Shown: one piece after another, positions 5,276 to 37,286 of the stretch
How the letters are laid out: every line of letters begins with the position of its first letter
Numbering within the stretch: position 1 is the stretch's first letter
Source of the DNA: Polyangia bacterium
GTDB taxonomy: Bacteria; Myxococcota_A; Polyangia; JAAYKL01
Length of the DNA stretch: 64,000 bases
Direction: 5' to 3'
Assembly: GCA_046484285.1 (NCBI GenBank)
Contig: JAWOBP010000156.1
Span: 2,518-66,517, forward strand
Made by a program: the position numbers and the translations under genes
The notes under the pieces: model-generated
Database searches by the model: none
What the model was told of the DNA's origin: nothing
The model's input: the letters and a program-made list of their open reading frames with translations, nothing else

Positions 5276-5536
5276 CCCGATCGAGGGTACAGCGAATGCG
5301 GACCGCGGACAACGAGCCCCTGACCGCCAGGATCCACGATCAAGCTCCGGGATTCGCCGCCGCCGGGTGAAGCGGGCCCCGGCGATCTGCAAGGGAGGAT
5401 ACCCGCCGGCAGGCTCGACGAGACGAGGTCGCCGGTCCGGGGCGTTCAGATGACCGCCTTTTGCGCCGCTTCGTCGTCCCCGCAAGGACCCGGCTTTTCT
5501 GCGTATCGAGGACGGTCGGGATGGCGTTGGGATTTG

Positions 5537-5609
5537 TGGAGCCGATGGGACTTGAACCCACGACCTCCGCGTTGCGAACGCGGCGCTCTCCCAGTTGAGC
5601 TACGGCCCC
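5537..5609 (-). tRNA. tRNA-Ala (anticodon CGC)
   Basis: Reverse complement GGGGCCGTAGCTCAACTGGGAGAGCGCCGCGTTCGCAACGCGGAGGTCGTGGGTTCAAGTCCCATCGGCTCCA folds as cloverleaf; G3:U70 Ala identity pair; anticodon loop TTCGCAA; CCA encoded. Ends anchored on overlapping ORF-track frame. Confidence 0.85.
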
Positions 5610-18903: not shown

Positions 18904-21702
18904 ATGTCCAAGAAATATCTTTTCGTATTTGCTGTTTTCGCGGCTTGCTGGTCGCTGACCGGCTGGGGCTGCGATTCGAGCGGATCGGGGGGCTCCTCGG
19001 GCGACGCCGACACCGATGCCGACGCGGACGCCGATTCCGATGCCGACGCGGACGCCGATTCCGATACGGATGCCGACAGCGATGGCGACACGGACGCCGA
19101 CTCGGACGCCGACAGCGACGCCGACTCGGACGCCGACAGCGACGCCGACTCGGACACGGACTCCGATTCGGACACGGACATGCAGCAGACCGATTTTTGC
19201 AACGAGGACGGCTGGTGCTTCGAGAATCCCACCCCGCACGGCAACACGCTGCGCAGCGTCTGGATCAACTCAGCGAGCGACGTCTGGATGACCAGCGAGA
19301 CCGGGCAGGTGCTGCGCTACGACGGCAGCGACTGGTACGAGTGGCGCTCCGGAGAGTGGGGCGAGGTCTTCACCGCCCTGTGGGGCACCGCTCAGTCGAA
19401 CATGTTCGCGCTGAGCAGCAATCGGCTGATGCACTGGAACGGGAGCGGTTGGTCGGCGGTCTTCACCGACTACGGGCTGACCGCCGTGTTCGGTTTCGGC
19501 AGCGACGACATCTGGGTCACCAGCTACTATGGCGCCCACCACTGGGACGGCACGAGCTGGGAGGAGCACGAGCTGCCGGATTCGTACCTGGCGACCGTGT
19601 TCGGCGTCGCCACGGACGACGTCTGGCTCGGCGGGCAAAACGGCGTTCTCTACCACTGGAACGGCAGCGAGCTCGAGGATCGCTCCCTGACCGACGAGAA
19701 CCACATCTCCGATATCTGGGGCAGCGCCGCGGACGACGTCTACCTCGCATCGGCCGGCTCGAATTCGCTCTACCACTGGGACGGATCCGAGATGGGCCAG
19801 CTCAATCCCGGGCTGACCGCGAGCGGCTGGTCGAAGATCGCGGGCATCGCGGCCGACGACATCTACCTGCTGGGCTCGGGCAACAGGGTGGGTCATTACG
19901 ACGGATCCTTCTGGAGCGACGTCTCGCCCACGGTCCAGCCCTGGTCGCTGGTGGACATCGACGCCGAGTCGGGCGGCGACGTCTGGCTGGTGGGAGGCTA
20001 CGGGATCTTCTGCCAACGGGACGGGGGCGGCTGGGCGTGCAGCGACGCGCTGACCTACGAGAACCTGCAGAGCGTGGGAGGCAGCGCGGCCGACGATCTG
20101 ACGGCCTGCTCCGGCTGGGGCGTGATCGCGGAGCGCGGCTCGGGAGGCTGGAGCACCAATCAGGTCGCGGTTCCGACCTACCTTTCCGACGTCTGGCACA
20201 CGGGCGACGGGGTATTCTGGGGCTATTCCAGCAACACCTACACCGACGAGCTGCTCTTCTATCGCTACGACGGATCGGCGTGGAGCGAGTCGACGGTCGA
20301 AGCGCCGAGCGGGATGCACGCGGTCTGGGCCGGAGACGACGGCAGCGCCTGGGTGGCCGGTCTCGGCGGGCGGGCCTGCCGCTTCGACGGCGCGAGCTGG
20401 AGCTGCGACGCGACCGGGACGACCAAGGATCTGCAAGCCGTCTTCTCGGTGGACGGCGAGGTCTTCGCCGCCGGCCAGGACGGCGCCGTGGCTCACCACG
20501 ACGGAACGGGCTGGTCGCCGCAGGCGAGCAACGTGGACGACGACCTCCGCGCGGTCTGGGGCGCGAGCGCCGACGACGTCTGGGTCGTGGGACACCACGG
20601 CAACGCGGCGCATTTCGACGGCACGGCGTGGACGGCGGTCGATATCTCCAGCTCCTACGATCTCAACGACCTGTGGGGCTTCGCTTCGGACGACGTGTGG
20701 GCCGTGGGCTACAGCGGCGACGCCTTCCACTGGGACGGAGTCGAGTGGACCGAGGTGGAGACGCCGATCTACGACGAGATCTACTCCATCTGGGGCGCGA
20801 CGAGCGACGACGTCTGGGCGGTGTCCGACTGGGGCGGCCTGATCCACTGGGACGGGACGGAATGGAGCGAGGACACCAGCCTCGAGGACTGGGACATGAT
20901 GGCGGTTGCGGGCACCGCCTCCGACGATGTCTGGATCGTCGGCTGGCACGGAACCATGTACCACTACAACGGCTCGGCGTGGAGCGAGGTCAGCAACATG
21001 CTGACCGAGGATTCGCTCTACATGGAAGACATCACCGCCGGCGGAGGCGAGCTGTGGGTCGTCGACTGGGACGACCAGATCTACGCCCGCAAGAACGGCG
21101 CCTGGTCGATCCAGGTGCTGGCCGAGGAGGACGAGGCGCAGGTGACCGGGATCTGGGCCGCAGGACCGGACGACGCCTGGGCCGCGCTTCACCAGGGGAT
21201 GCTGCTGCGCTGGGACGGCGTCGAGTGGCGGCTCTACTCCAGCAGCGGGGCGTCGCGGCTGGACGCGATCCACGGCGCGGGCAGCGACCAGGTCTGGGCG
21301 ATCGGAGACGCCCTGATCGCCTGGGACGGCAGCGCCTGGACGCGGCTGGCCGACGTCTCGACTCAGAGCGAGAACGCCGATTTCGCCGGCATCTACGGGA
21401 CGTCCAGCAGCGAGCTGCGCGCTCTGCTGGAGAACGGAACGCTCTACTCATGGGACGGCTCCTCGTTCGCCCAGCAGTTCACGGTCGACTGGTACAACAT
21501 CTACATGGACGTGACCTGGCTGGGGCTCGACGAGCTGTGGGCCGTGGGCAGCGGCGGCGCTGTGCTGCACTGGGACGGCGTCTCGGTCGAGCTGCCGGCG
21601 AGGCTGACGAGCAACACGCTCTACGGAGTCACTTCGATTCCGGCCGGAGACCTGTTCGCCGTCGGACTGGGCGGCACGATTCTGCACCGCCTGCCGCAGT
21701 GA
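18904..21702 (+). CDS. large repeat lipoprotein: post-lipobox poly(Asp-Ser/Ala/Thr) tether + ~18 tandem Trp-rich beta-propeller-like repeats
   Basis: CAAGGAG RBS; [23 protein letters not shown] lipobox; 60-aa [27 protein letters not shown]... linker; then ~45-aa units with consensus [13 protein letters not shown]...HWDG..W (Ycf48/BNR-like blades). Confidence 0.8.
18997..19185 (+). repeat. imperfect 6/12-bp coding tandem repeat (GAC-RCS-GAY-KCS)n encoding the acidic tether
   Basis: Seen directly: gacgccgacaccgatgccgacgcggacgccgattccgat...gacagcgacgccgactcggacgcc... Confidence 0.7.
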
Positions 21703-21739
21703 CGGGGAGTCGGGCTCGATGGCAAGGAGGACAAAAACG

Positions 21740-22669
21740 ATGATCGGCAAGCTGCGAATCGCCCTGCTGGCCGCCGGGCTGGTCGCCGTCTCGGGCTGCG
21801 AGTCGGCCGGCGGCGCCAGCTCCGGCTCCGATGCCGACGCCGACGCGGACGGCGATAGCGACGGCGATAGCGACGGCGACAGCGACGCAGATTCGGACTC
21901 GGACCAGGAGTGCACGGACGGGGCCGCGATCTGCGCTGACGACTACACCGCGCAGACCTGCATCGGCGGGGAGTGGGTCGTCACCGACGAGTGTAACCCC
22001 GAGACCCAGATGTGCGTGGGCGGCGTCTGCGCCGACTGCGTGGACATCGAGTTCTCGATCCAGACCCAGCAGGCCTGCGCGATCTCGATCCTGGACGGTT
22101 ACGAGATGGACGGTGAGGGCTTCATCGAGCTGTACGGCGAGCAGTACCGCGTCTTCGCCATGGATCGCTGGGGCGAGGGGCACATCATCGCCTGGGCCGA
22201 CTCGACGACCACCGGCGAGCTGCTCGAGGCGTTCAACGTGACCGGCTACCTGGGCCAGATGGACGATCCGACCGTGGTCTCGTTCGGCGACAACTACCTG
22301 TGCAACCCGGACGGGCTGGACGGCTACATGCCTGACTACGTGCAGTACCTGGGCGAGGATCTTCCGGCCGCCTACCTGCAGAACGCCGCGCAGATGGCCA
22401 GTGATTTCGACGTGCTGATCTTCTGCGGGTTCCGCATTCCGTGGAGCAACGACTGGGCCGACGAGATTGCCGAGTTCGTCTCCCAGCACGGCAAGGGCTT
22501 CTTGGCGGTGATGGACTACGAGGGCGTGGTGGTGGCCGAGGATTTCACCAACATGAGCGCGATCACCTCCCAGGCCGGGATCGTGTTCGATCCGCTCAAC
22601 CTGGATTGGGCGCCGACCTCGGTCTCGGTTCAGCTGGAGTGCGTGCCCGACGTGCCTCCGGTCGAGTAG
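21740..22669 (+). CDS. hypothetical lipoprotein with acidic (D-S/A/G)n tether
   Basis: ATG at 21740 preceded by AGGAGG; MIGKLRIALLAAGLVAVSGC lipobox; [28 protein letters not shown] linker; Cys-rich globular domain; no family recognised. Confidence 0.6.
   Translation: MIGKLRIALLAAGLVAVSGCESAGGASSGSDADADADGDSDGDSDGDSDADSDSDQECTDGAAICADDYTAQTCIGGEWVVTDECNPETQMCVGGVCADCVDIEFSIQTQQACAISILDGYEMDGEGFIELYGEQYRVFAMDRWGEGHIIAWADSTTTGELLEAFNVTGYLGQMDDPTVVSFGDNYLCNPDGLDGYMPDYVQYLGEDLPAAYLQNAAQMASDFDVLIFCGFRIPWSNDWADEIAEFVSQHGKGFLAVMDYEGVVVAEDFTNMSAITSQAGIVFDPLNLDWAPTSVSVQLECVPDVPPVE
21824..21910 (+). repeat. short coding tandem repeat (GAC/GGC-GAT-AGC)n encoding DADADGDSDGDSDGDSDADSDSD
   Basis: gatgccgacgccgacgcggacggcgatagcgacggcgatagcgacggcgacagcgacgcagattcggactcggac. 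Confidence 0.6.
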
Positions 22670-23382: not shown

Positions 23383-24174
23383 TCAGTAGCTGTCCGGGGG
23401 CGGGTCTACCAGCTGGAACTGGGCTTCCAGCTTGGACAGGTCGGGCAGCTCCTCGAGGTTGGGCATCAGCGTTATCTCGATGCGGCGGTTGCGCGCCTTT
23501 CCGCGCTTTTTGCGGTTGGGCGCGACCGGTTGGTGGTGGGCGTAGCCCGCGGCCGAGAGCCGCCTGCCCGGAACGCCGTGCTCGATCAGGAACTGCACGA
23601 CCTCCACGGCCCTGGCCGCGCTGAGGTGCCAGTTGCTCTCGTGGGGGTTCTCCTCGCTGAGCGGAACGTTGTCCGTGTGCCCGGCAACCTGGAAGTCGCG
23701 ATCCTTTATCCCCCCGAAGACCTCGGCGACGCTTTTCAGAGTCTCCCTGCCCTTGTCGCTCAGCGAGGCCTCGCCCGACTCGAACAGCACCGCGCTCGGC
23801 AGCGCGATCACCATCCTGCCCCTCCGGATCCGCACCTGGAGGTCGCCCGCTTCGATCATCTTCTCGAGGCTGTCCAGCAGCCCCTGGAGCGTCTCCTGCC
23901 TGCGCGCGGCGAGATCGGCCGCCTCCCGGCTTCTTTCGACCTGCAACCGCAGACCCCGCAGCTCGGCCCGGGCGCTGTCCAGCTCGCCTTCGAGCTTCTC
24001 GAGCGCCGAGACCTGCTCGCGAAGGGTCTCGTTTTGCGACGAGATCGATTCGTTGAGCTCGGTCAGTTCGGCGATCCGCTTCTCCTGCTCGGAGCAGCAG
24101 CCGGAAATGACGAGCGCGGTGGTCAGCAGACCTCCGATCGCCAGCGGCGATCGATGCTTGCCGATGTAGAGCAT
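23383..24174 (-). CDS. OmpA/MotB-like peptidoglycan-binding lipoprotein with coiled-coil
   Basis: Lipobox LTTALVISGCC; heptad coiled-coil region; C-terminal OmpA-like motifs GHTDNVP...NWHLSAARA...NRRIEI. Confidence 0.75.
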   Translation of the reverse strand: MLYIGKHRSPLAIGGLLTTALVISGCCSEQEKRIAELTELNESISSQNETLREQVSALEKLEGELDSARAELRGLRLQVERSREAADLAARRQETLQGLLDSLEKMIEAGDLQVRIRRGRMVIALPSAVLFESGEASLSDKGRETLKSVAEVFGGIKDRDFQVAGHTDNVPLSEENPHESNWHLSAARAVEVVQFLIEHGVPGRRLSAAGYAHHQPVAPNRKKRGKARNRRIEITLMPNLEELPDLSKLEAQFQLVDPPPDSY

Positions 24175-25422: not shown

Positions 25423-25893
25423 ATGAACGACAGGTTTTTTCTTGATACGAACATTTTGGTCTACACTTTCGACGAGCGAGAGCCCTCGAAGCGCGCCAAG
25501 GCAAGGCAGCTCGTGGAGCGCGCTCTCGAGAGCGGCCGGGGTGTGATCAGCTACCAGGTGCTCCAGGAGTTTCTCAACGTGTCGGTGCGCAAGTTCTCAC
25601 GACCGCTGAGATTCGCCGACCGAATCCGCTATCTCGAGACCGTGCTCTCGCCCCTTTGCGAGGTGTTTCCGTCCGAGGCCTTTTACCGCCGCGGGATCGA
25701 GATCGAACAGCGATACGGCTTCGGGTTCTACGATTCGCTGATAATCGCCGGCGCGCTGGCGGCCGGGGCAGCGACCCTCTGCTCCGAAGACTTTCAGGAT
25801 GGCCAGCGCATCGAAAGCACAACCATCGCCAACCCTTTTTCTGACCCCTCTGATCCGCTCTCTGATCCACTCTCTGATCCACTCGGGGGGTGA
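25423..25893 (+). CDS. vapC: PIN-domain toxin VapC
   Basis: FLDTNILVY (first acidic residue), YDSLIIAGA, LCSEDFQD motifs of PIN/VapC; C-terminal SDPSDPLSDPLSDPLGG tail is encoded by the 12-bp tandem repeats/DR-R (stop codon inside DR-R). Confidence 0.8.
   Translation: MNDRFFLDTNILVYTFDEREPSKRAKARQLVERALESGRGVISYQVLQEFLNVSVRKFSRPLRFADRIRYLETVLSPLCEVFPSEAFYRRGIEIEQRYGFGFYDSLIIAGALAAGAATLCSEDFQDGQRIESTTIANPFSDPSDPLSDPLSDPLGG
25849..25884. repeat. three tandem 12-bp units TCTGATCC(G/A)CTC
   Basis: tctgatccgctc tctgatccactc tctgatccactc immediately 5' of DR-R; inverted partial copy (TGGATCGAG) 10 nt downstream. Confidence 0.6.
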
Positions 25894-28634: not shown

Positions 28635-31600
28635 TTACGTCCCGCCGCCCAAAAGCAGGATGTGATCCACCTCGAAGCGCTCGCCGCCGGCCGAGACCAG
28701 CGAGATCGGCAGCGAGCCGGAGGGCCAGAGACCGGGCTCCAACGAAAAGCGGTATTCCCTCATTGCTCCGCTCAGCTCCGCGGTCGCTGCAAGGCGACCG
28801 TCGATCCGCACCTCGAGCTTTTCCGAGCTGGCGGGGTCATCCCCCAGGTGTCGCGCGCGAACCAACAGCAGGCCGCCTCGATCCGCCATCGCCTCGAAGC
28901 GCAGCTCTGCGCGCGATCCCGAACTGAGGCAGGTGGTGCGTCCCAGGTAGCCGCCGCGCCCCTCGCCGTCTGCGGTGCAGCGCGCCCAACCGGAAACCAG
29001 CGAGGGGGCGCCCCGCGCCAGGTCGGTGCCGAACAGCGGCGCGCGGCCCACCGCTCCAATTCGGACAAGGCTCTCCGCGGTGCACTCCAACTCGGGCTCC
29101 TCCACGAGCAGCCGCAGCAGGCGGGGCGCGGCCCACTCGATCCCGAGCCGTCCCAGCGACTGGACCGCGTAGCAGCGCGTGTCGGTGTGGTCGTCGCTGG
29201 CCAGCACGTCGAGCAGCACGGCGCCGGCCCGCGGATCGCCGAGCAGGCCCAGCGCCTTGACCGTCCGGTAGCGGGTGCGGTTGTCGTCCAGCAGGTCGAC
29301 CAGCGGCTCGAAGGCCCGCCTGTCACCGAGGCGGCCCAGGTGGCGAATCGCGGCGGTGCGCAGCTCGAGATCGCCGCGGTGCAGGGCCTCGATCAGGGCG
29401 GGGACCGCGGCCGTGTCGCCGAGGTTCGCCAGCGCCAGCGCCGCCCGATCCCGCCTGGACGTCTCCCGGGAGCCGAGCGCCTCGCGCAGCACGCGAGCCC
29501 CGCGCGAGCTGCCCAGCCGACCGAGCGCCACCGCGGCCGCCAGCGCCACGTCGCGATCCCCGTCGCCGAGCAGCTCTGCGATCTCACCTGTCTTCTTTCG
29601 CACGCCGATCTCGCCGACGAGCTCGAGCGCTTCGCAGCGATCCCGGCTTTGCGCCTCGACGTCGCGCGCCACGTCGAGCAGCGTCGGCACGGCCCGCGGA
29701 TCGCGCAGGCGGCCGAGACGGAGCGCCCGTCGCGTCCGGTCCGCGGCGGCGGCGATCCCGTCGATCCAGACGCGGATCTCGTCGAGCAGCTCGGCGCCGA
29801 CATCCGGCTCTCGGTCGTAGAGGTTGCGCTTCTCGCCCGGATCCGAGCCGAGGTCGTAGAGCTCGAAGAGGCGGCGGGAGGGATCCGATATCAGCTTCCA
29901 GGGCCAGCGCACGGCCATGTGCTGTCGCATCACCGAGGCGAAGACCGGGTGGGGCGTCCGGGGGCTCTGCCCGGAGAGCAGAAACGGACGCAGGTCGCGA
30001 CCCTCCATCCGGGCCGGGACATCGACGCCGACCAGGCGCAGCAGGGTGGGCGCCGTGTCCAGCGTCGAGACCGGCTGCTCCACGAAGCGGGGTTCGGCTC
30101 CGGGAACCCGGATGATCAGCGGCACGCGCACCTGCTCCTCGTAGAGCGAGGAACCGTGGTAATGCCCGCCGTGCTCGCCGAACTCCTCGCCGTGGTCGGC
30201 GGTCAGCACCACGACCGCGTCGCGCGCCAGCTCTTTTTCCACGTGGTCGAGCAAGCGGCCGGCCGCCGCGTCGGCCTCGAAGATCTCGCCTTCGTAGCGC
30301 TCCCGCGGCGAGGTGCCGAAACGCTCCGAGCGGTAGGGCTCGTGGACGTTGAAGAAGTGCACCCAGAGGAAGAAGGCCGGCTCGCCCTGCTCGATGTAGC
30401 TCTCGATCCTGGTGATCGCCAGATCGGCGAGCTTGTCCGGAGACGGAGATCCGTGGTGCACGGACTCGAATCCGAAGCTGCGATCGCGCAGCGAGCCCAC
30501 CCGATCGCCGTGGGTGTGGAAGATCCCGTTGGTGTAGAACGCCGAGCTCTCGTAGCCGGATTCTCCCAGCACGTCGGCCATGGTCGTGGTGCTCGATACG
30601 TCGAGCCCCATCGCCACCTCGTCGTAGAGGTAGCGGGAGGTGTGGAACGATGAGATCGAGTACGAGCTGTGAGGCACCGGGCAGTAGGCGCGCTCGAAGG
30701 CCGTGGCGCGGCTCGCCCACTCGTCGATTCGCGGCGAGGCGGGTCGCTCGTGGTAGCCGTAGACGCCCAGGCGGTCGGCGCGCAACGCGTCGATCGAGAT
30801 GATGATCAGGTGCGCGCCGGGGAAGGTCGGCCAGTCGCCGGAGGATATCACCTCCCGCTCGGCGCGCTCTCGCTCGTAGAGCCTCCGTCGCGCCGCGGTC
30901 GAGGGGCGGCTCTCGGCCGGGGATTTCCCGCTCGCGACAATGCTGGCGACGCGCAGCAGGCTCGAGGTGGTCGCCGTCCGCTCGTGCAGCGCCAGCTTGA
31001 CCGTCTGTCGTTCGTTGCTGGTCCACAGCGCCGCCGCCAGCAGCAGCAAAACCAACGCGGCGGTCCGCGCGGCGGCGATCGCCAGGCGCCCGGTTTCGAC
31101 GCGGCCCAGGCGCGAGATGGCGATTCGCGCTCCCAGCGCCAGCAACCCCAGCGAGCCCAGCGCCAGCGCAGCGTGCAGGTAGTCGTAGAGGCGGCGGTAG
31201 AGGTGTCCGTCACACCAGCGCGCGCCCAGCGCCAGCGCCACCAGCGCCAGCACTGCGGCCAGCCTGGCGCCGCGCGCCGCGTTCGGGCGGTCGAGCCTCG
31301 CGACCAGGGCCAGGACCACGCTCGCAGCGATCCATGTCAGCACCGCCAGGAGCAGCGCTGCCAGCGCGACCAGCAGCCAGCGCGCCGGCAGGCGGGAGGT
31401 CGTTCCACCCTGGAAGAGGCGCACTGCCACGTAGATGCAGGCGGGCAGCGCCAGCACCGTCAGCGCCCAGGACGAGCCGCGCGCGGGGCGGCGACTCCGC
31501 CGCCGCCAAAGCCGGGCGCCCGCCAGCGATCCGACCGACGCCACGAGCGCGATGCACAGGCCGATCGGAGCCAGCCGTCCGGCGGTCTGCAGCAGGAGCA

Positions 31601-31760
31601 ATGCTCGTTGGGCCGTTCCGGACAGATCCGACCAGCCCTGTACGGCATCCAGGGCGCCCGCGATCAGCCCCGCCGCCGCCCCGGAGACGACGGCCAGCGA
31701 CGGTCCGGCGAAGTCCGGGATCGCGGTCTCTGATCGGCCGGCTGCCAGTGAAAAGCTCAT
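28635..31760 (-). CDS. 1041-aa polytopic membrane protein: sulfatase-like (AP-superfamily) domain + HEAT (PBS-lyase-type) repeats + C-terminal beta-rich domain
   Basis: Start MSFSLAAGRSE (aa 45 of ORF 28635..31892; the ORF-track N-terminus overlaps tRNA-Cys); ~7 Ala/Leu-rich TM helices in the first 320 aa; HLIIISIDALRADRLGVYGY...CPVPHSS (non-canonical motif); GDTAAVPALIEAL/…LGRLGDRRAFEPLVDLLDD HEAT repeats. Confidence 0.7.
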   Translation of the reverse strand: MSFSLAAGRSETAIPDFAGPSLAVVSGAAAGLIAGALDAVQGWSDLSGTAQRALLLLQTAGRLAPIGLCIALVASVGSLAGARLWRRRSRRPARGSSWALTVLALPACIYVAVRLFQGGTTSRLPARWLLVALAALLLAVLTWIAASVVLALVARLDRPNAARGARLAAVLALVALALGARWCDGHLYRRLYDYLHAALALGSLGLLALGARIAISRLGRVETGRLAIAAARTAALVLLLLAAALWTSNERQTVKLALHERTATTSSLLRVASIVASGKSPAESRPSTAARRRLYERERAEREVISSGDWPTFPGAHLIIISIDALRADRLGVYGYHERPASPRIDEWASRATAFERAYCPVPHSSYSISSFHTSRYLYDEVAMGLDVSSTTTMADVLGESGYESSAFYTNGIFHTHGDRVGSLRDRSFGFESVHHGSPSPDKLADLAITRIESYIEQGEPAFFLWVHFFNVHEPYRSERFGTSPRERYEGEIFEADAAAGRLLDHVEKELARDAVVVLTADHGEEFGEHGGHYHGSSLYEEQVRVPLIIRVPGAEPRFVEQPVSTLDTAPTLLRLVGVDVPARMEGRDLRPFLLSGQSPRTPHPVFASVMRQHMAVRWPWKLISDPSRRLFELYDLGSDPGEKRNLYDREPDVGAELLDEIRVWIDGIAAAADRTRRALRLGRLRDPRAVPTLLDVARDVEAQSRDRCEALELVGEIGVRKKTGEIAELLGDGDRDVALAAAVALGRLGSSRGARVLREALGSRETSRRDRAALALANLGDTAAVPALIEALHRGDLELRTAAIRHLGRLGDRRAFEPLVDLLDDNRTRYRTVKALGLLGDPRAGAVLLDVLASDDHTDTRCYAVQSLGRLGIEWAAPRLLRLLVEEPELECTAESLVRIGAVGRAPLFGTDLARGAPSLVSGWARCTADGEGRGGYLGRTTCLSSGSRAELRFEAMADRGGLLLVRARHLGDDPASSEKLEVRIDGRLAATAELSGAMREYRFSLEPGLWPSGSLPISLVSAGGERFEVDHILLLGGGT

Positions 31761-31778
31761 GGGCAAGAAACGACTCTG

Positions 31779-31849
<71 letters not shown>

Positions 31850-31938
31850 CGAAACGAACGGGAATCCTAGTCGTGCCCGACCCCGTTGTCAATTGCGCGG
31901 ACCTTGGGCGAGTGGGCGAGAGGTCGTCCCGTCAGAAT

Positions 31939-31960
31939 CCGCCACGCGGTTTTTTGTTTT
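31939..31960 (+). terminator. weak hairpin + T-run (CCGC-cac-GCGG TTTTTTGTTTT), no upstream plus-strand gene
   Basis: Seen in sequence between tRNA-Cys and the lipoprotein gene; stem only 4 bp, so weak. Confidence 0.2.
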
Positions 31961-32023
31961 GCAGTATGATGATAGATGAAAAACAAAGGAAGAGACCGAA
32001 TCTTGCAACACGAGGAGGCCGAT

Positions 32024-33214
32024 ATGCGTACATGGTGGGCTATGACTGCAATCGCCGCGCTGCTCCTGGCAGCTTGCGGCGGAGATCCGCCGCCGTTCGA
32101 CGCAGACGCCGGTACGGACGCGGACAGCGACGCGGATTCCGACGCGGACTCCGACGCGGACTCCGACGCGGACTCCGACGCGGACTCCGACGCGGACTCC
32201 GACGCGGACTCCGACGCGGACTCCGACGCGGATTCCGACGCGGATTCCGACGCGGACTCCGACGCGGACTCCGACGCGGACTCCGACGCGGACGCGGATC
32301 AGTGCACCGGAGAGGAGCAGATCGAGCTGCTGGTCGCCGACGCGGAGATAACCGAGCCGATGGAGACCGCCGAGAGCCAGTCGGGCGAGGGCATCTACTG
32401 CCGCACCACGGTCTACGGCGAAGGTCTGGCCGAGTGGTCGGGAGTGCAGATTCCCTGCCAGGGTGACTGGTACGTGCTGGGCCGCGTCTTCGGACAGGCG
32501 CCGGTCGACTCGATGTACCTGACGGTCGAGGATTACGACGAGGTGGTCTGGGATTTCAGCCAGTGCGAGGGGACCCAGTACTGGGACTGGGACTTCGCCT
32601 CCTCCGGGCCGGACGTCGAGGAGTGCTCGGTCGGCGAGATCGAGGATCCGGTGTCGTTCTTCCTGGTGCCCGGGCCGATCGGCGTCGCTCTTCGCGGGCG
32701 CGAGATACCGTCCGAACAGGGATACTCGCCATCGGTGGCCCGCCTCTACCTGGTCACCGATCCCGAGATCGATCCGGACACGATCGGGCTGGGCCTGCTG
32801 GACATCACCGGCCCCGGCGCTGTTCCCGACAACCTGGTCGACATCTACCACCAGGTGGGCGACGTCGGCACGCCGCTCGACACGACGCTGGAGGCCTGGA
32901 TCCGCTGGTCCGGCTCGGTGAGCCCGGACAACGAGGAGGGCTGCGGGCCCTATCCCCCGGACGTGTTCACCGATGCGGTGGCTCTGATTCGCAGGGGCAC
33001 CTGCCAGTTCTCCGACAAGGTCGCCAATGCCGAAGCGGCCGGCGCGGTGGGAGCAGTCGTGCTCAACAATCAGGGCAACGAGATAGTCTACATGACGGGA
33101 GATCCCAACGGTATTCCGGCCACCTTCGTCGGCCAGGACGACGGGCAGGCGATCGTCGACTGGATCCTGGATCACCCCGGCCAGGCCACCGTCGCGATCC
33201 ACCCCATGCCCTGA
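32024..33214 (+). CDS. lipoprotein with (Asp-Ala-Asp-Ser)17 tether and C-terminal PA (protease-associated) domain
   Basis: Start [20 protein letters not shown] (aa 17 of ORF); 68-aa perfect DADS repeat; C-terminal [35 protein letters not shown]...[14 protein letters not shown] is a PA-domain signature. Confidence 0.7.
32117..32300 (+). repeat. near-perfect 12-bp tandem repeat (GCGGAYTCCGAC)~15 encoding (ADSD)n
   Basis: Seen directly: gcggactccgac repeated head-to-tail with only T/C wobble differences; likely prone to slipped-strand length change. Confidence 0.8.
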
Positions 33215-33223
33215 CGGTTTCGG

Positions 33224-34375
33224 CTACTCGCAGCTCGCGGGCCGGGGAAGCTCCGGCCAGCGGTCCAGGGCGCGCTCGAGCTCGCCGGCGCGATATCGAT
33301 ACGCCGCAGGCCAGTCGAAGCGTTCCAGCAGCAACCGCGCCGTCTCCAGGCGTCCCAGCCGCAGCTCGATCTCGACGAGTCGCAGCCTGGCCCGCGCCTC
33401 GGCGGGAGCCGCACCGGCCGCTTCCACGACCCGCTCGCGAGCCGGCCAGTCCCTCCCGGCTCGCTCCAGGCGGCAGGCGCGCCGCTCGGCCGCCGCGAGG
33501 TCGCCGGGAGGTGGCTCGGGCAGAGTGCGCAAGTGCCTCAGCGCGCGGTCCCAGCGCCCGTCTTCGATCAGCAGCTCGACCAGCTCCTCGCGCAGCTCCT
33601 CGAAGGACGCCCCCGGCTCGTACCCCTCGGCCAGCACGGCCTCGACGACCTCGCACGCCGCCACCGGGTCCGAGCTCTTCAGCGCCGCTTCGGCCAGTTC
33701 GGCCGCGCTCTCCCCGCGGGCCGGCTCCAGCGAGACGGCGATCCGCAAGTGCCGCACGGCCGCGGCCCAGTCGCCTTCCTGCAGCGCGATTCTCCCCAGC
33801 CCGCGGTGGGCCGCGCCACATGACGGATCCGCTGCGGCGGCGCGGCGATAGAGCTCGGCCGCGGCGCGACGCTCGCCGCGCTCCAGGTGGAGGCGGGCCA
33901 GCCACAGCTCGGCCTCGCGGCTGCCGGGCTCGACCCGCATCGCGCGCAACGCGGCCCGCTCTGCTTCCTCGACGTCTCCGCGCGCCAGCCGCAGCTCGGC
34001 CAGCGCGATCCAGGCGTACTCGGCGGCGGGCTCCGACTCGATCGCGGCGGCGATCTCCTCGCGCGCCTGCTCGTACCGCTCCAGCTCGATCAACGTCAGC
34101 GCCAGGTCGACGCGCAGGTGGAAGTCGTCCGGGTCGGCGCTCAGGGCCCGGCGGTAGTGGAGCGCTGCCTCCTCCAATTCTCCGTCGAGACGCAGCAGAT
34201 CGGCGCGCAGCTTGTGCTCGTAGGCGAGCGGAGAGCCGCTCGCGCCGCCGGGGCCCGAGGAGACGACCAGGCTGCGGCTGGACGTATCCGCGTCGAGCGC
34301 GGCGCCTCCGGCGCAGGCGGCGAAGGTCGCCGCCTGCAGAAGGCAAGCGGTGTTGGTGAAGAGCGCGGCGCGCAT
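33224..34375 (-). CDS. TPR-repeat lipoprotein
   Basis: Start MRAALFTNTACLLQAATFAACAGG (aa 98 of ORF 33224..34666); repeated TPR units (ALHYRRALSADPDD, EYAWIALAELRLARGD, ...). Confidence 0.65.
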   Translation of the reverse strand: MRAALFTNTACLLQAATFAACAGGAALDADTSSRSLVVSSGPGGASGSPLAYEHKLRADLLRLDGELEEAALHYRRALSADPDDFHLRVDLALTLIELERYEQAREEIAAAIESEPAAEYAWIALAELRLARGDVEEAERAALRAMRVEPGSREAELWLARLHLERGERRAAAELYRRAAAADPSCGAAHRGLGRIALQEGDWAAAVRHLRIAVSLEPARGESAAELAEAALKSSDPVAACEVVEAVLAEGYEPGASFEELREELVELLIEDGRWDRALRHLRTLPEPPPGDLAAAERRACRLERAGRDWPARERVVEAAGAAPAEARARLRLVEIELRLGRLETARLLLERFDWPAAYRYRAGELERALDRWPELPRPASCE

Positions 34376-35225: not shown

Positions 35226-37286
35226 ATGGGTCCCTACGTCATGACCGCATGCATCGCGGTGGCTCTCGCCGTCTTCGGCTGGTCGGCGCACCGGCGCTGG
35301 CTGCTGATGCGCGCCGCCGCCGCCGAGAACCGCTTCGATCGCCTCGGCACGCGCCTGGGCCGCATGATCTGGTTCGCGCTGATGCAGCGCAAGCTGCCCA
35401 AGTACCCGGTGATGGGGCTGATCCACATGGCCATCTTCTGGGGCTTTCTGGTGCTGCTGATCAACACGGTGATCCTGTGGGGCCGCGGGTTCGATGAACA
35501 TTTCGCCCTGTGGATCTTCGGCGACAACTGGCTGGGTGACCTGTACCGCTTTCTCAAGGACATCTTCGCGGTCGCGGTGCTCGTAGCCGCCGGGCTGGCG
35601 TTGCTCAATCGCGTGATCCTGAGGCCGTCGCGGATGACCGCCTCGTTCGAGGCGGCGCTGATCCTGCTGATCATCGTGGTGATGATGATAGGCGATCTGG
35701 CCTACTGGGGCTGGCAGCTGTCCAGCGAGGGGATGAGCGGCTTCCACGTCTCCGAGCCGTTCGTCTCGCTGGTTGCCGCGGGCTTTTCTCGGATGGAACC
35801 CGCCTGGGTCGAGATCCTGGGCACGATCGGCTACTGGGCGCACGCGGTGCTGGTGTTGATCTTTCTCAACATCCTGCCTTACGGCAAGCACTTCCACGTT
35901 GTCACCTCTCTGCCCAACGTGTTTTTCTCCAACCTCGAGGCGCCGGGCAAGCTGCCCCGCGACGAGAACATCGAGAAAGTGCTCAACGAGGAGGACGAGG
36001 AAGAGGAGGACGAGGAAGAGGAGCCCGTCTTCGGCGTCGACGAGGTCCAGCACTTCAGCTGGAAGGACGTGCTGGACATGTACTCCTGCACCGAGTGCGG
36101 GCGCTGCACGGACAACTGCCCGGCCGCCGAGAGCGGCAAGCCGCTGCAGCCCAAGCAGTTCCTCACCGCGGTGCGCGATCACCTCTACTCCCGGCAGCGG
36201 GAGATGATCTCCGGCAAGATCGAGAGCCGCCCGCTGGTGCCGGACGTGATCGATCCCGAGGTGGTCTGGAGCTGCACCACCTGCCGCGCCTGTGAGGAGG
36301 AGTGCCCGCTGCTGATCACCTACGTGGACAAGCTGGTCCGCATGCGGCGCGACCTGGTCGAGGGACGCGGCGAGCCGCCGGCCGAGCTGGCCACGGCTCT
36401 GCGCGGAATTGAGACCAACGCCAACCCGTGGAACATCTCGCCGATGGATCGCGACGACTGGAGCGAGGGGCTCGAGGTCCCCCAATTCGATTCCGACAGC
36501 TGCGAGTACCTGCTGTTCGTCGGCTGCGCGGCGAGCTTCGACGATCGGGCGCGCAAGATCGCTCGCGCGCTGGTCTCGCTGCTGGACGCCGCCGGCGTCA
36601 GCTACGGCTACCTGGGAGCCGAGGAGCCGTGCTGCGGCGACATCGCGCGCCGCGGCGGCTCGGAGGCCAACTTCCGGATGATGGCCGAGATGACCGTCGA
36701 GACGCTCAACGAGCTGGGCGTCGAGAAGATCATCACGCCCTGCCCGCACGGCTACAACACGCTCAAGCACGAGTACCCCGAGCTGGGCGGCGAGTGGGAG
36801 GTGCTGCACCACAGCGAGCTTTTGGCCAAGCTGCTCGACGAGGGCAAGCTGCGTCCCGCCCAGCGGGTCGAGCAGCGGATGGTCTTTCACGACGCCTGCT
36901 ACCTGGGGCGCTACAACGAGATGTACGACGCGCCGCGCCGCATCCTGGAAGCGGTTCCCGGCCTGGAGCTGGTCGAGATCGACGCCGGCCGCCAGCGAGC
37001 CATGTGCTGCGGCGCGGGAGGAGCGCGCTACTTCATGGAGGAGGCCCCGGACCAGCGGGTCAACAGCAGGCGCCTCGACCAGCTGCTCGAGCCAAAGCCG
37101 AAATCTATCGCCTCGGCCTGCCCGTTTTGCATGACCATGCTCTCCGACGGCCTCAAGGAGCGCGACCTCTACGACAGCACCGGCCAGCTCGACGTGGCCG
37201 AGATTTTGGCGATCTCCTGCGGAAAGGGAGACCGCAAGCTGCTCAGGGAGCAAGGCGACTCCGCCGAGACCGGAGCGGAGGGCTGA
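35226..37286 (+). CDS. membrane-anchored (Fe-S)-binding protein: NarI/DsrM-like N-terminal helices fused to two 4Fe-4S ferredoxin motifs and two CCG (HdrD/GlpC-like) domains
   Basis: N-terminal TM helices; CTECGRCTDNCP and CTTCRACEEECP ferredoxin motifs; GCAASFDD...PCCG and CPFC/MCCGAGG cysteine-rich CCG domains. Confidence 0.7.
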   Translation: MGPYVMTACIAVALAVFGWSAHRRWLLMRAAAAENRFDRLGTRLGRMIWFALMQRKLPKYPVMGLIHMAIFWGFLVLLINTVILWGRGFDEHFALWIFGDNWLGDLYRFLKDIFAVAVLVAAGLALLNRVILRPSRMTASFEAALILLIIVVMMIGDLAYWGWQLSSEGMSGFHVSEPFVSLVAAGFSRMEPAWVEILGTIGYWAHAVLVLIFLNILPYGKHFHVVTSLPNVFFSNLEAPGKLPRDENIEKVLNEEDEEEEDEEEEPVFGVDEVQHFSWKDVLDMYSCTECGRCTDNCPAAESGKPLQPKQFLTAVRDHLYSRQREMISGKIESRPLVPDVIDPEVVWSCTTCRACEEECPLLITYVDKLVRMRRDLVEGRGEPPAELATALRGIETNANPWNISPMDRDDWSEGLEVPQFDSDSCEYLLFVGCAASFDDRARKIARALVSLLDAAGVSYGYLGAEEPCCGDIARRGGSEANFRMMAEMTVETLNELGVEKIITPCPHGYNTLKHEYPELGGEWEVLHHSELLAKLLDEGKLRPAQRVEQRMVFHDACYLGRYNEMYDAPRRILEAVPGLELVEIDAGRQRAMCCGAGGARYFMEEAPDQRVNSRRLDQLLEPKPKSIASACPFCMTMLSDGLKERDLYDSTGQLDVAEILAISCGKGDRKLLREQGDSAETGAEG

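Follow-up and report, generated by a model that had tools for sequence, protein, structure and literature searches.

Why should three putative lipoproteins encoded on one contig of a Polyangia bacterium each carry, a short distance behind the predicted lipid anchor, a long run in which every second residue is aspartate, and why should one of these runs be written in almost perfectly repeated DNA? We examined this question in a stretch of 64000 nt of contig JAWOBP010000156.1 (GenBank assembly GCA_046484285.1, positions 2518–66517 of the forward strand; hereafter the window, within which all coordinates are given), which has a G+C content of 69%. A first-pass annotation, made from the sequence and its open reading frames (ORFs), had drawn attention to these acidic arrays and had proposed that they are spacers of variable length. 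Our results point in the same direction: the arrays are probably polyanionic, disordered tethers between a lipid anchor and folded domains, encoded by a tandem repeat that would expand and contract in frame.

The most regular of the three runs (array 1) lies in the gene at 32024..33214 on the forward strand, which encodes a 396-aa lipoprotein with a PA domain. The first-pass annotation had counted about 15 head-to-tail copies of a 12-bp unit in this gene, and Tandem Repeats Finder (TRF) gave practically the same figure, 14.8 copies of GACGCGGACTCC at 32117–32293 with a 96% match and no insertions or deletions (indels). The score of 319 was by far the highest in the 64-kb window. Variation among the units is slight: the Ser codon of unit 1 is AGC, the second Asp codon of units 2, 10 and 11 is GAT, and the last unit is incomplete. 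Exact self-matches at period 12 reach 83 bases in the window, whereas they did not exceed 14 in any of 200 first-order Markov simulations or 13 in any of 200 triplet shuffles. The codons are monotonous as well, as all 16 Ala codons are GCG and 13 of the 14 Ser codons are TCC, against a window background of 44% GCG and 23% TCC. This monotony indicates that array 1 originated by duplication of DNA.

Translated from the ATG at 32024, the repeat gives DADS 14 times, then DADA and a final D, and it begins 13 residues past the lipobox Cys. A ribosome-binding site, GGAGG, lies 6 nt upstream of the ATG, and both this site and the start region are conserved in the closest relative (locus L025, see below). 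The PA domain named in the first-pass annotation was recovered by Pfam at residues 303–377 (PF02225, E 5.8e-17). AlphaFold, run on a shallow alignment, gave a model with a mean pLDDT of 57, in which residues 1–89 had a pLDDT below 50 and no secondary structure; a β-sandwich was predicted at residues ~93–250 (window 32300–32773), followed by the PA fold. Foldseek comparison with the PDB showed that the sandwich resembles the carbohydrate-binding modules (CBMs) of families CBM35 and CBM6 (E 3e-6 to 1e-4, target TM 0.65–0.77) and that the C-terminal part of the model matches PA domains; the confidence of the model is modest, and we regard the CBM6/CBM35-like identity as a lead. The globular part of the protein is very acidic, with 52 Asp and Glu residues and 9 Lys and Arg residues.

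The same anatomy is found in two further lipoproteins, one of 932 aa (array 2) and a shorter one encoded just downstream of it (array 3). Together, the three arrays are the only (D[ASTGE])n runs with n of at least 4 in the six-frame translation of the window. Arrays 2 and 3 had been described as similar but less perfect; both were recovered a few bases inside the bounds given earlier (Table 1), and both are degenerate in DNA (TRF period 24 with a 79% match for array 2, period 12 with an 82% match for array 3). The arrays begin 13, 10 and 10 residues after the lipobox Cys (arrays 1, 2 and 3 respectively) and precede the globular part, as the first-pass annotation had stated. Asp makes up 51–52% of each array and alternates with a variable residue (hereafter D-x). 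Each array ends a few residues before the next Cys, and the linkers counted from Cys to next Cys are 75, 75 and 37 residues long, all exceeding the 22-residue length of disordered lipoprotein linkers of the E. coli type.

All three ORFs are on the forward strand and have the codon-position G+C pattern of real genes. Reverse-strand ORFs that cover the arrays, such as 31889–33202(-) and 18660–19268(-), were rejected, because the pattern of G+C at third codon positions, the Pfam PA match and the orthologs all favour the forward strand. The three N-termini fit a lipoprotein signal by pattern matching, with a positive n-region, a hydrophobic core and a lipobox of the form [LVI][ASTVI][GAS]C, the lipobox of the 932-aa protein (TGWGC) being atypical. 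Lipoboxes were called from sequence patterns, and lipid modification is predicted. By this measure about eight of the ~45 genes in the window are lipoprotein candidates; three of the eight carry arrays, and every array in the window is in a lipoprotein. The 932-aa lipoprotein had no family match in Pfam or NCBIfam, and its W..DG..W repeats are possibly propeller-like. The third lipoprotein had no Pfam domain and belongs to a conserved Myxococcota family of lipoproteins of roughly 300 aa. Its gene most likely starts at the ATG at 21740 rather than at 21719, because an AGGAGG lies just upstream of the former and the gene call in the relative begins there.

We then compared the window with its closest relative, the metagenome-assembled genome (MAG) GCA_964530995.1 (CAZHCG01, labelled ‘uncultured Myxococcales’), in which two loci correspond to the window (L025 and L053). 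The window and L025 are 89.5% identical in nucleotides over the 2.8 kb downstream of array 1, and the globular part of the PA gene is 90% identical in DNA and 88% in protein. Array 1 has 14.8 units in the window and 8.8 in the MAG, a 78-bp in-frame difference. The first unit, with its AGC codon, and the last partial unit are common to both alleles, and the interior differs. Both alleles share the unit GACGCGGACTCC, and each is 93–96% homogeneous although the flanks have diverged by 10%. Together with the monotonous codons, this homogeneity suggests a continuing gain and loss of units.

In the window, array 2 exceeds that of the MAG by 60 bp (20 residues), the extra sequence being its most regular stretch, with a 24-bp period, whereas the 932-aa protein outside the array is 89% identical to its MAG counterpart over 840 aa without a gap. 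In the third protein, the globular part is 98% identical to that of the MAG. All 13 Asp residues of array 3 are kept, with 7 of the 13 Asp codons changed synonymously and none non-synonymously, and 6 of the 12 x residues are replaced. Across the 305, 840 and 254 globular residues of the three proteins (~1400 in total) there was no indel between window and MAG. The first-pass expectation that tether length varies thus held in part: between lineages at ~90% nucleotide identity, arrays 1 and 2 differ in length and array 3 does not. The only other indels in the 2.8-kb alignment with L025 are of 6 bp and 3 bp and fall, at ~34240–34340, in the signal peptide and Gly/Ser linker of the neighbouring TPR lipoprotein (33224–34375, reverse strand). 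A locus with arrays 2 and 3 in the Logan assembly of SRR7048218 (L054) is identical to L053 over the aligned stretches and is probably not independent of it.

Orthologs of the PA lipoprotein were collected from three sources: the globular part, searched against 5.8 billion proteins, gave only three, a metagenome scan added four loci, and a genome scan for two repeat units added L025. An exact look-up of the PA protein gave no match, and neither this search nor that with the third protein returned a 100% self-match, so the source genome is absent from the collections covered. The layout is the same in all orthologs whose N-terminus is complete: after the lipobox come a segment of exactly 13 residues that contains G-x-(D/E/S)-P-P, then a D-x array, then the conserved C-x-G-x-E-x-IELLV. 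The array lengths in six PA sequences, counted by the D-x pattern, were 62, 36, 44, 34, 50 and 45 residues; this count gives array 1 62 residues, one above the 61 of the composition count. The x residues are Ala and Ser in the window and L025 and mostly Ser and Thr in the other orthologs. In the more distant orthologs the DNA of the array is degenerate and its codons are mixed, and the array is kept down to ~50–55% identity. Alternating Asp in such degenerate, codon-mixed DNA indicates that the pattern is maintained at the level of the protein. One orthologous metagenome contig (L050, 1–40) ends inside its array, which shows that such repeats trouble assemblers. The contig of ortholog P0002 (L001) is syntenic with the window over the PA gene, a TPR gene, a 184-aa gene and a Fer4/CCG gene. 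In a paralogue-like locus (L051, 2171–2560), the place of the array is taken by a Cys-rich domain.

The arrays are not confined to these proteins. When one bacterial or archaeal genome per species was searched for exact matches to two units of array 1, 47 loci emerged, and the surroundings of each were translated. In-frame D-x arrays of at least 16 residues were present at 34 of the 47, nearly all from MAGs labelled Myxococcota, Myxococcales, Polyangia, Deltaproteobacteria or ‘proteobacterium’, and a lipobox Cys was found no more than 30 residues upstream of about 26 of these 34 arrays. At three loci (L008, L046 and L047) the arrays sit between domains of larger exported proteins. Further array lipoproteins adjoin the orthologs, namely a cyclophilin-like protein and a 570-aa protein in the related MAG and two (DT)n lipoproteins on L001. 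Matches to the 24-mer in actinobacteria (Streptomyces, Amycolatopsis, Kribbella and others) were set aside as a different feature, being short (8–12 aa) or in other frames. The longest D-x array seen, of ~190 residues and mostly DADS and DSDS, is in a ‘Deltaproteobacteria’ MAG (L042, JAKFCH010000155.1, ~2476–2949), where the examined stretch does not include the N-terminus.

For the third lipoprotein, 53 homologues (P0011–P0063) were compared. Relatives at 64–98% identity have D-x arrays of 17–31 residues, whereas more distant ones, several of them named Polyangiaceae or Myxococcales in the source, have Gly-rich linkers of 40–82 residues with less than 10% Asp in the same position. This clean split between Asp and Gly suggests that the linker is conserved as a feature and that its chemistry is a property of the lineage. 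The spacer role proposed in the first-pass annotation is in keeping with these comparisons: in complete orthologs the array is always kept downstream of the lipobox and ahead of the first Cys in the globular domain, with varied length and x residues and with Gly-rich replacements.

The arrays thus share one anatomy, keep their position and composition among relatives, are associated with lipoboxes across the lineage and differ in length between related genomes. From these features we infer an extended conformation, a role as spacer and in Lol sorting, and a slippage mechanism, as follows. In the mature protein the array would stand after the lipid-modified Cys and a short Gly/Ser/Pro spacer and before the first folded domain. 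As Asp alternates with a small residue (A/S/T/G), about half of the residues are negatively charged, and by analogy with Ser-Asp repeats that have been measured, the array may be a self-repelling, unfolded and extended chain that would keep the globular domains, which are very acidic and Cys-rich, clear of the membrane and would probably also supply the disordered segment needed by the Lol pathway. What would be under selection is not the sequence but the alternation of Asp and a length kept within loose bounds. The linker DNA would gain and lose whole in-frame units via replication slippage or unequal recombination, so that array length would drift quickly between lineages. Young arrays, such as array 1, would be near-perfect, and older ones, such as arrays 2 and 3, would have decayed by point substitutions.

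Several observations weigh against this reading or narrow it. Array 3 has the same length in the window and in the MAG. The copy numbers were taken from assemblies that are either short-read or of unknown type, in which runs of identical units may collapse, a point that concerns chiefly array 1. At the level of strains, an exact search of metagenome contigs with 26-nt flanks, which was the sole search aimed at near-identical alleles, gave no matches. Disorder of the arrays is suggested by the shallow-alignment AlphaFold model described above and by analogy. As only three of the eight or so lipoprotein candidates in the window have an array, it is not a general requirement for lipoprotein trafficking, and the fact that arrays accompany extremely acidic, Cys-rich cargo hints at a more specific role, for example one connected with a compartment or a habitat.

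We weighed four other explanations against a tether of drifting length. Dedicated Ca2+- or Mg2+-binding modules, which would bridge to lipopolysaccharide or exopolysaccharide, stiffen a stalk or load Ca2+ on to the attached domains, appear unlikely to be what the arrays are, even though Asp accounts for 51% of each array with net charges of -31, -30 and -13, and the domain attached in the PA protein resembles CBM6/CBM35. Modules of this type often bind Ca2+, and the Asp-rich proteins of biomineralization are a precedent. In the Pfam scan of the three proteins (E ≤ 0.01), however, only PA was matched, with no repeat family on the arrays and no profile match to the Ca2+-binding acidic repeats (thrombospondin type 3, RTX and EF-hand-like). 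Ca2+-binding repeats have motifs such as DxDxDGxxDxxD and GGxGxD, and here the residue between the Asp residues varies freely (A/S/T/G/V) and the length varies ~2-fold. The orthologs of the third protein in other lineages, which use Gly-rich linkers with no acidic run, indicate that Ca2+ binding is not essential to these proteins. Acidic clusters in low-complexity regions can co-ordinate Ca, Mg or Zn according to one survey (PMC6821194), and non-specific cation binding by such a polyanion is nearly unavoidable; it could be a side property and not the function. We consider it quite unlikely that the acidic run is instead a sorting signal to the cell surface, outer-membrane vesicles or matrix. 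In Bacteroidota, negative charges that follow the lipidated Cys have been proven to signal export (PMC5080379, PMC10319031), and in the window the arrays are restricted to three lipoproteins with extremely acidic, Cys-rich domains of extracellular type, the sulfatase and the OmpA-like lipoprotein being without one. Yet the Bacteroidota signal stands at +2 to +6, where its position is critical, whereas positions +2 to +11 here are rich in Gly, Ser and Pro and the arrays run from +11 to +14 onwards; similar arrays are found at interdomain positions remote from any lipobox as well (L008, L046 and L047), and the Gly-rich replacement in orthologs would demand a signal specific to the lineage.

The remaining two explanations concern the repeat itself. 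If the arrays were neutral low-complexity products of slippage, tolerated in a linker and with no selected property beyond not folding, the rapid turnover of their sequence and length would be accounted for, as would the ease with which GC-rich codons (GAC, GCG and TCC) generate such repeats; myxobacteria are, moreover, the bacteria most enriched in low-complexity regions according to the survey (PMC6821194). Neutrality is nevertheless very unlikely in our view. Asp is strictly kept at every second position despite many synonymous changes between array 3 and the MAG, all PA orthologs with a complete N-terminus have the array in codon-diversified DNA down to ~50–55% identity, and lengths are bounded (34–62 residues in the PA family and 17–31 in the family of the third protein), with a fixed place after the 13-residue segment. 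Array 1 could also be a contingency locus, that is, a programmed hypermutable repeat by which a surface receptor would undergo phase or antigenic variation in a population, which we judge to be highly improbable. It does contain 84 bp of perfectly identical units, with the longest exact period-12 run at 83, its copy number differs between relatives, and its homogenization implies continuing turnover. Set against this are the degenerate state of arrays 2 and 3 and the metagenome flank search, which gave 0 matches and thus no sign of heterogeneity within populations or strains. Free-living Myxococcota are not known to use contingency loci. Phase variation by frameshift was rejected, because a 12-bp unit inside an ORF keeps the frame at every gain or loss and cannot switch the protein on or off.

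Rather than a generic linker, the array may be a functional device specific to the lineage, either an address tag that directs very acidic, Cys-rich lipoproteins to the surface, vesicles or matrix of Myxococcota, or a cation-responsive ‘ruler’ with a reach set by rapid slippage, and in either form with adaptive changes of repeat number; this we think unlikely. If it were so, a change in copy number would adjust how far the CBM-like and PA domains, or the propeller-like repeat protein, project from the cell.

For a specialist, an array of this kind is tidy and lineage-wide yet not very surprising, and we regard the advance as modest. Its interest lies in several directions. The importance of disordered N-terminal linkers in lipoproteins, for Lol sorting and for reaching across the envelope, has become clear only recently, and the load of low-complexity sequence in myxobacteria has been reported without an explanation; the pattern described here plausibly accounts for part of the Gly and Asp excess. 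Our results suggest a proteome-wide convention of a lipobox, a short Gly/Ser spacer and a polyanionic D-x array, replaced by a Gly-rich run in other lineages. It also amounts to a natural experiment, as the same domains are borne on linkers that differ in length and chemistry and alleles differ by whole units, so that questions of linker length, charge and habitat become testable in Myxococcota. In addition, it offers annotators a simple mark by which binding proteins that are tethered to an anchor and probably exported can be recognized as a class. Since arrays break or may collapse in short-read assemblies, MAG gene lengths are unreliable at such sites.

The coordinates of the arrays, their genes and the lipoprotein candidates without an array are collected in Table 1.

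Table 1. Array-bearing lipoprotein genes and other lipoprotein candidates in the window
Feature	Position	Strand	Remarks
Signal peptide and 10-residue Gly/Ser spacer, 932-aa lipoprotein	18904..19002	+	Lipobox Cys23, codon 18970-18972; AAGGAG ribosome-binding site upstream
Array 2	19003..19179	+	59 residues, (D-[ASTG])n, net charge -30
Globular part, 932-aa lipoprotein	19180..21702	+	~20 ‘W..DG..W’ repeats; D+E 125, K+R 23
Signal peptide MIGKLRIALLAAGLVAVSGC and 10-residue spacer ESAGGASSGS, third lipoprotein	21740..21829	+	Cys codon 21797-21799
Array 3, DADADADGDSDGDSDGDSDADSDSD	21830..21904	+	25 residues, net charge -13
Globular part, third lipoprotein	21905..22669	+	Cys-rich N-terminal part; D+E 45, K+R 4
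Signal peptide, PA lipoprotein	32024..32077	+	Lipobox LLAAC; Cys codon 32075-32077; from sequence
Pre-array segment, PA lipoprotein	32078..32116	+	13 residues, same length in all orthologs; motif G-x-(D/E/S)-P-P
Array 1	32117..32299	+	61 residues, (DADS)14-DADA-D, net charge -31
Globular part, PA lipoprotein	32300..33214	+	From Pfam, AlphaFold model, Foldseek and composition
Lipoprotein candidate without array	386-1192
Lipoprotein candidate without array	1155-2144
Sulfatase-like lipoprotein candidate without array	16790-18316	-
OmpA-like lipoprotein candidate without array	23383-24174	-
TPR lipoprotein candidate without array	33224-34375	-

Some other features of the window may be recorded here. 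A tRNA-Cys(GCA) gene lies just upstream of the PA gene at 31778–31849(-), and a tRNA-Ala(CGC) gene further left at 5536–5609(-). The mechanically called ORF 28635–31892(-) overlaps the former tRNA gene, and its true start must therefore lie further downstream. Two other short tandem repeats are also within coding sequence. At the C-terminus of a 156-aa ORF (25423–25893, +) that by eye looks like a PIN/VapC-type toxin, a (SDPL)3 tail is encoded by a 12-bp repeat, CTCTGATCCACT, present in 3.1 copies at 25848–25884 (96% match), and a perfect 15-bp repeat, GAGGAGGACGAGGAA, in 2.4 copies at 35988–36023, encodes an insert EEDEEEEDEEEE in a 686-aa protein (ORF 35226–37286, +). The syntenic counterpart of the 686-aa protein on L001 has Fer4 and CCG domains.

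How do the arrays compare with systems already described? In the survey of low-complexity regions by Ntountoumi et al. 2019 (PMC6821194), myxobacteria are the most enriched bacteria, with Enhygromyxa salina at the top, and Gly (25%) and Asp (15% versus 6%) are prominent among the low-complexity residues, which occur mostly in proteins of unknown function. The arrays fit this description, as they come from the same phylum and combine a Gly/Ser spacer with a D-x array, or with an all-Gly linker in relatives. The words ‘lipoprotein’ and ‘signal peptide’ are absent from the searched text of that paper, which therefore does not seem to locate such regions behind lipoboxes, and its retrieved passages are silent on the structure of the DNA repeats and on changes in copy number. 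A keyword search of the literature gave no description of acidic repeats after the lipobox in myxobacteria, and a search with literal peptide strings such as DADSDADS gave nothing relevant.

The lipoprotein export signal (LES) of Bacteroidota shares with the arrays the negative residues near the N-terminus of the mature lipoprotein. It occupies 4–5 residues within +2 to +6, where K/Q/S precedes at least two D/E, and depends strictly on its position (PMC5080379). An LES was rejected for the three proteins on position: residues +2 to +6 are GGDPP, DSSGS and ESAGG (arrays 1, 2 and 3 respectively), and the arrays start at +14, +11 and +11, are 25–61 residues long and vary in length.

A closer likeness in composition is offered by the R region of the staphylococcal Clf/Sdr adhesins, in which, as in the arrays, Asp alternates with a small residue, the repeat adjoins the anchor and ligand-binding domains are projected. 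The R region is encoded by tandem DNA repeats that vary in length between strains. The title of one paper indicates that repeats serve for the typing of Fbl (PMC6533592). Differences are equally clear. The Clf/Sdr anchor is a C-terminal LPXTG, attached to Gram-positive peptidoglycan, whereas the arrays here are N-terminal and follow a lipobox, and no LPXTG was found in the translations of the three array proteins. The staphylococcal unit is SD, with 18-bp repeats whose protein product receives O-GlcNAc from SdgA and SdgB, whereas the units here are DADS or D-[AST] with 12- and 24-bp periods; the arrays, of the form D-[A/S/T/G], contain no long Ser-Asp run, and half of the x positions of array 1 are Ala. 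In the NCBIfam models of ClfA, ClfB, SdrC and SdrD, it is precisely the SD regions that align to the arrays, with scores of 46–47 bits against cut-offs of 999–2500. As only the low-complexity stretch is aligned, at scores so far below the cut-offs, homology to the Ser-Asp adhesins was rejected and the resemblance is taken to be one of composition. For SdrC, the Ser-Asp repeats have been described as disordered and highly extended, resisting compaction because of charge repulsion, and are thought to serve as stalks adjoining the cell-wall anchor (PMC9881980).

In terms of place, the arrays are most like the linkers of outer-membrane lipoproteins of E. coli. About half of these lipoproteins have a disordered N-terminal linker of more than 22 residues, removal of the linker misroutes three tested lipoproteins to the inner membrane, and in RcsF the length and disorder of the linker matter but its sequence does not (bioRxiv 10.1101/2021.01.05.425367). 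The linkers of RcsF, Pal and NlpD, like the arrays, immediately follow the lipidated Cys and precede the globular domain, are longer than 22 residues and have no predicted structure, and the rule of length over sequence agrees with the freedom of the x residues and with the Gly-rich linkers that replace the arrays in orthologs studied here. Unlike the arrays, the E. coli linkers are not tandem repeats and are not polyanionic, and variation in their copy number has not been reported. Only a subset of the lipoproteins in the window has the acidic form of linker, and a dependence on Lol is suggested here by analogy with E. coli. Taken together, these comparisons suggest that the arrays may be regarded as the N-terminal lipoprotein linker in a polyanionic, tandem-repeat form, and as a likely functional analogue of the Ser-Asp stalks rather than a member of their family.

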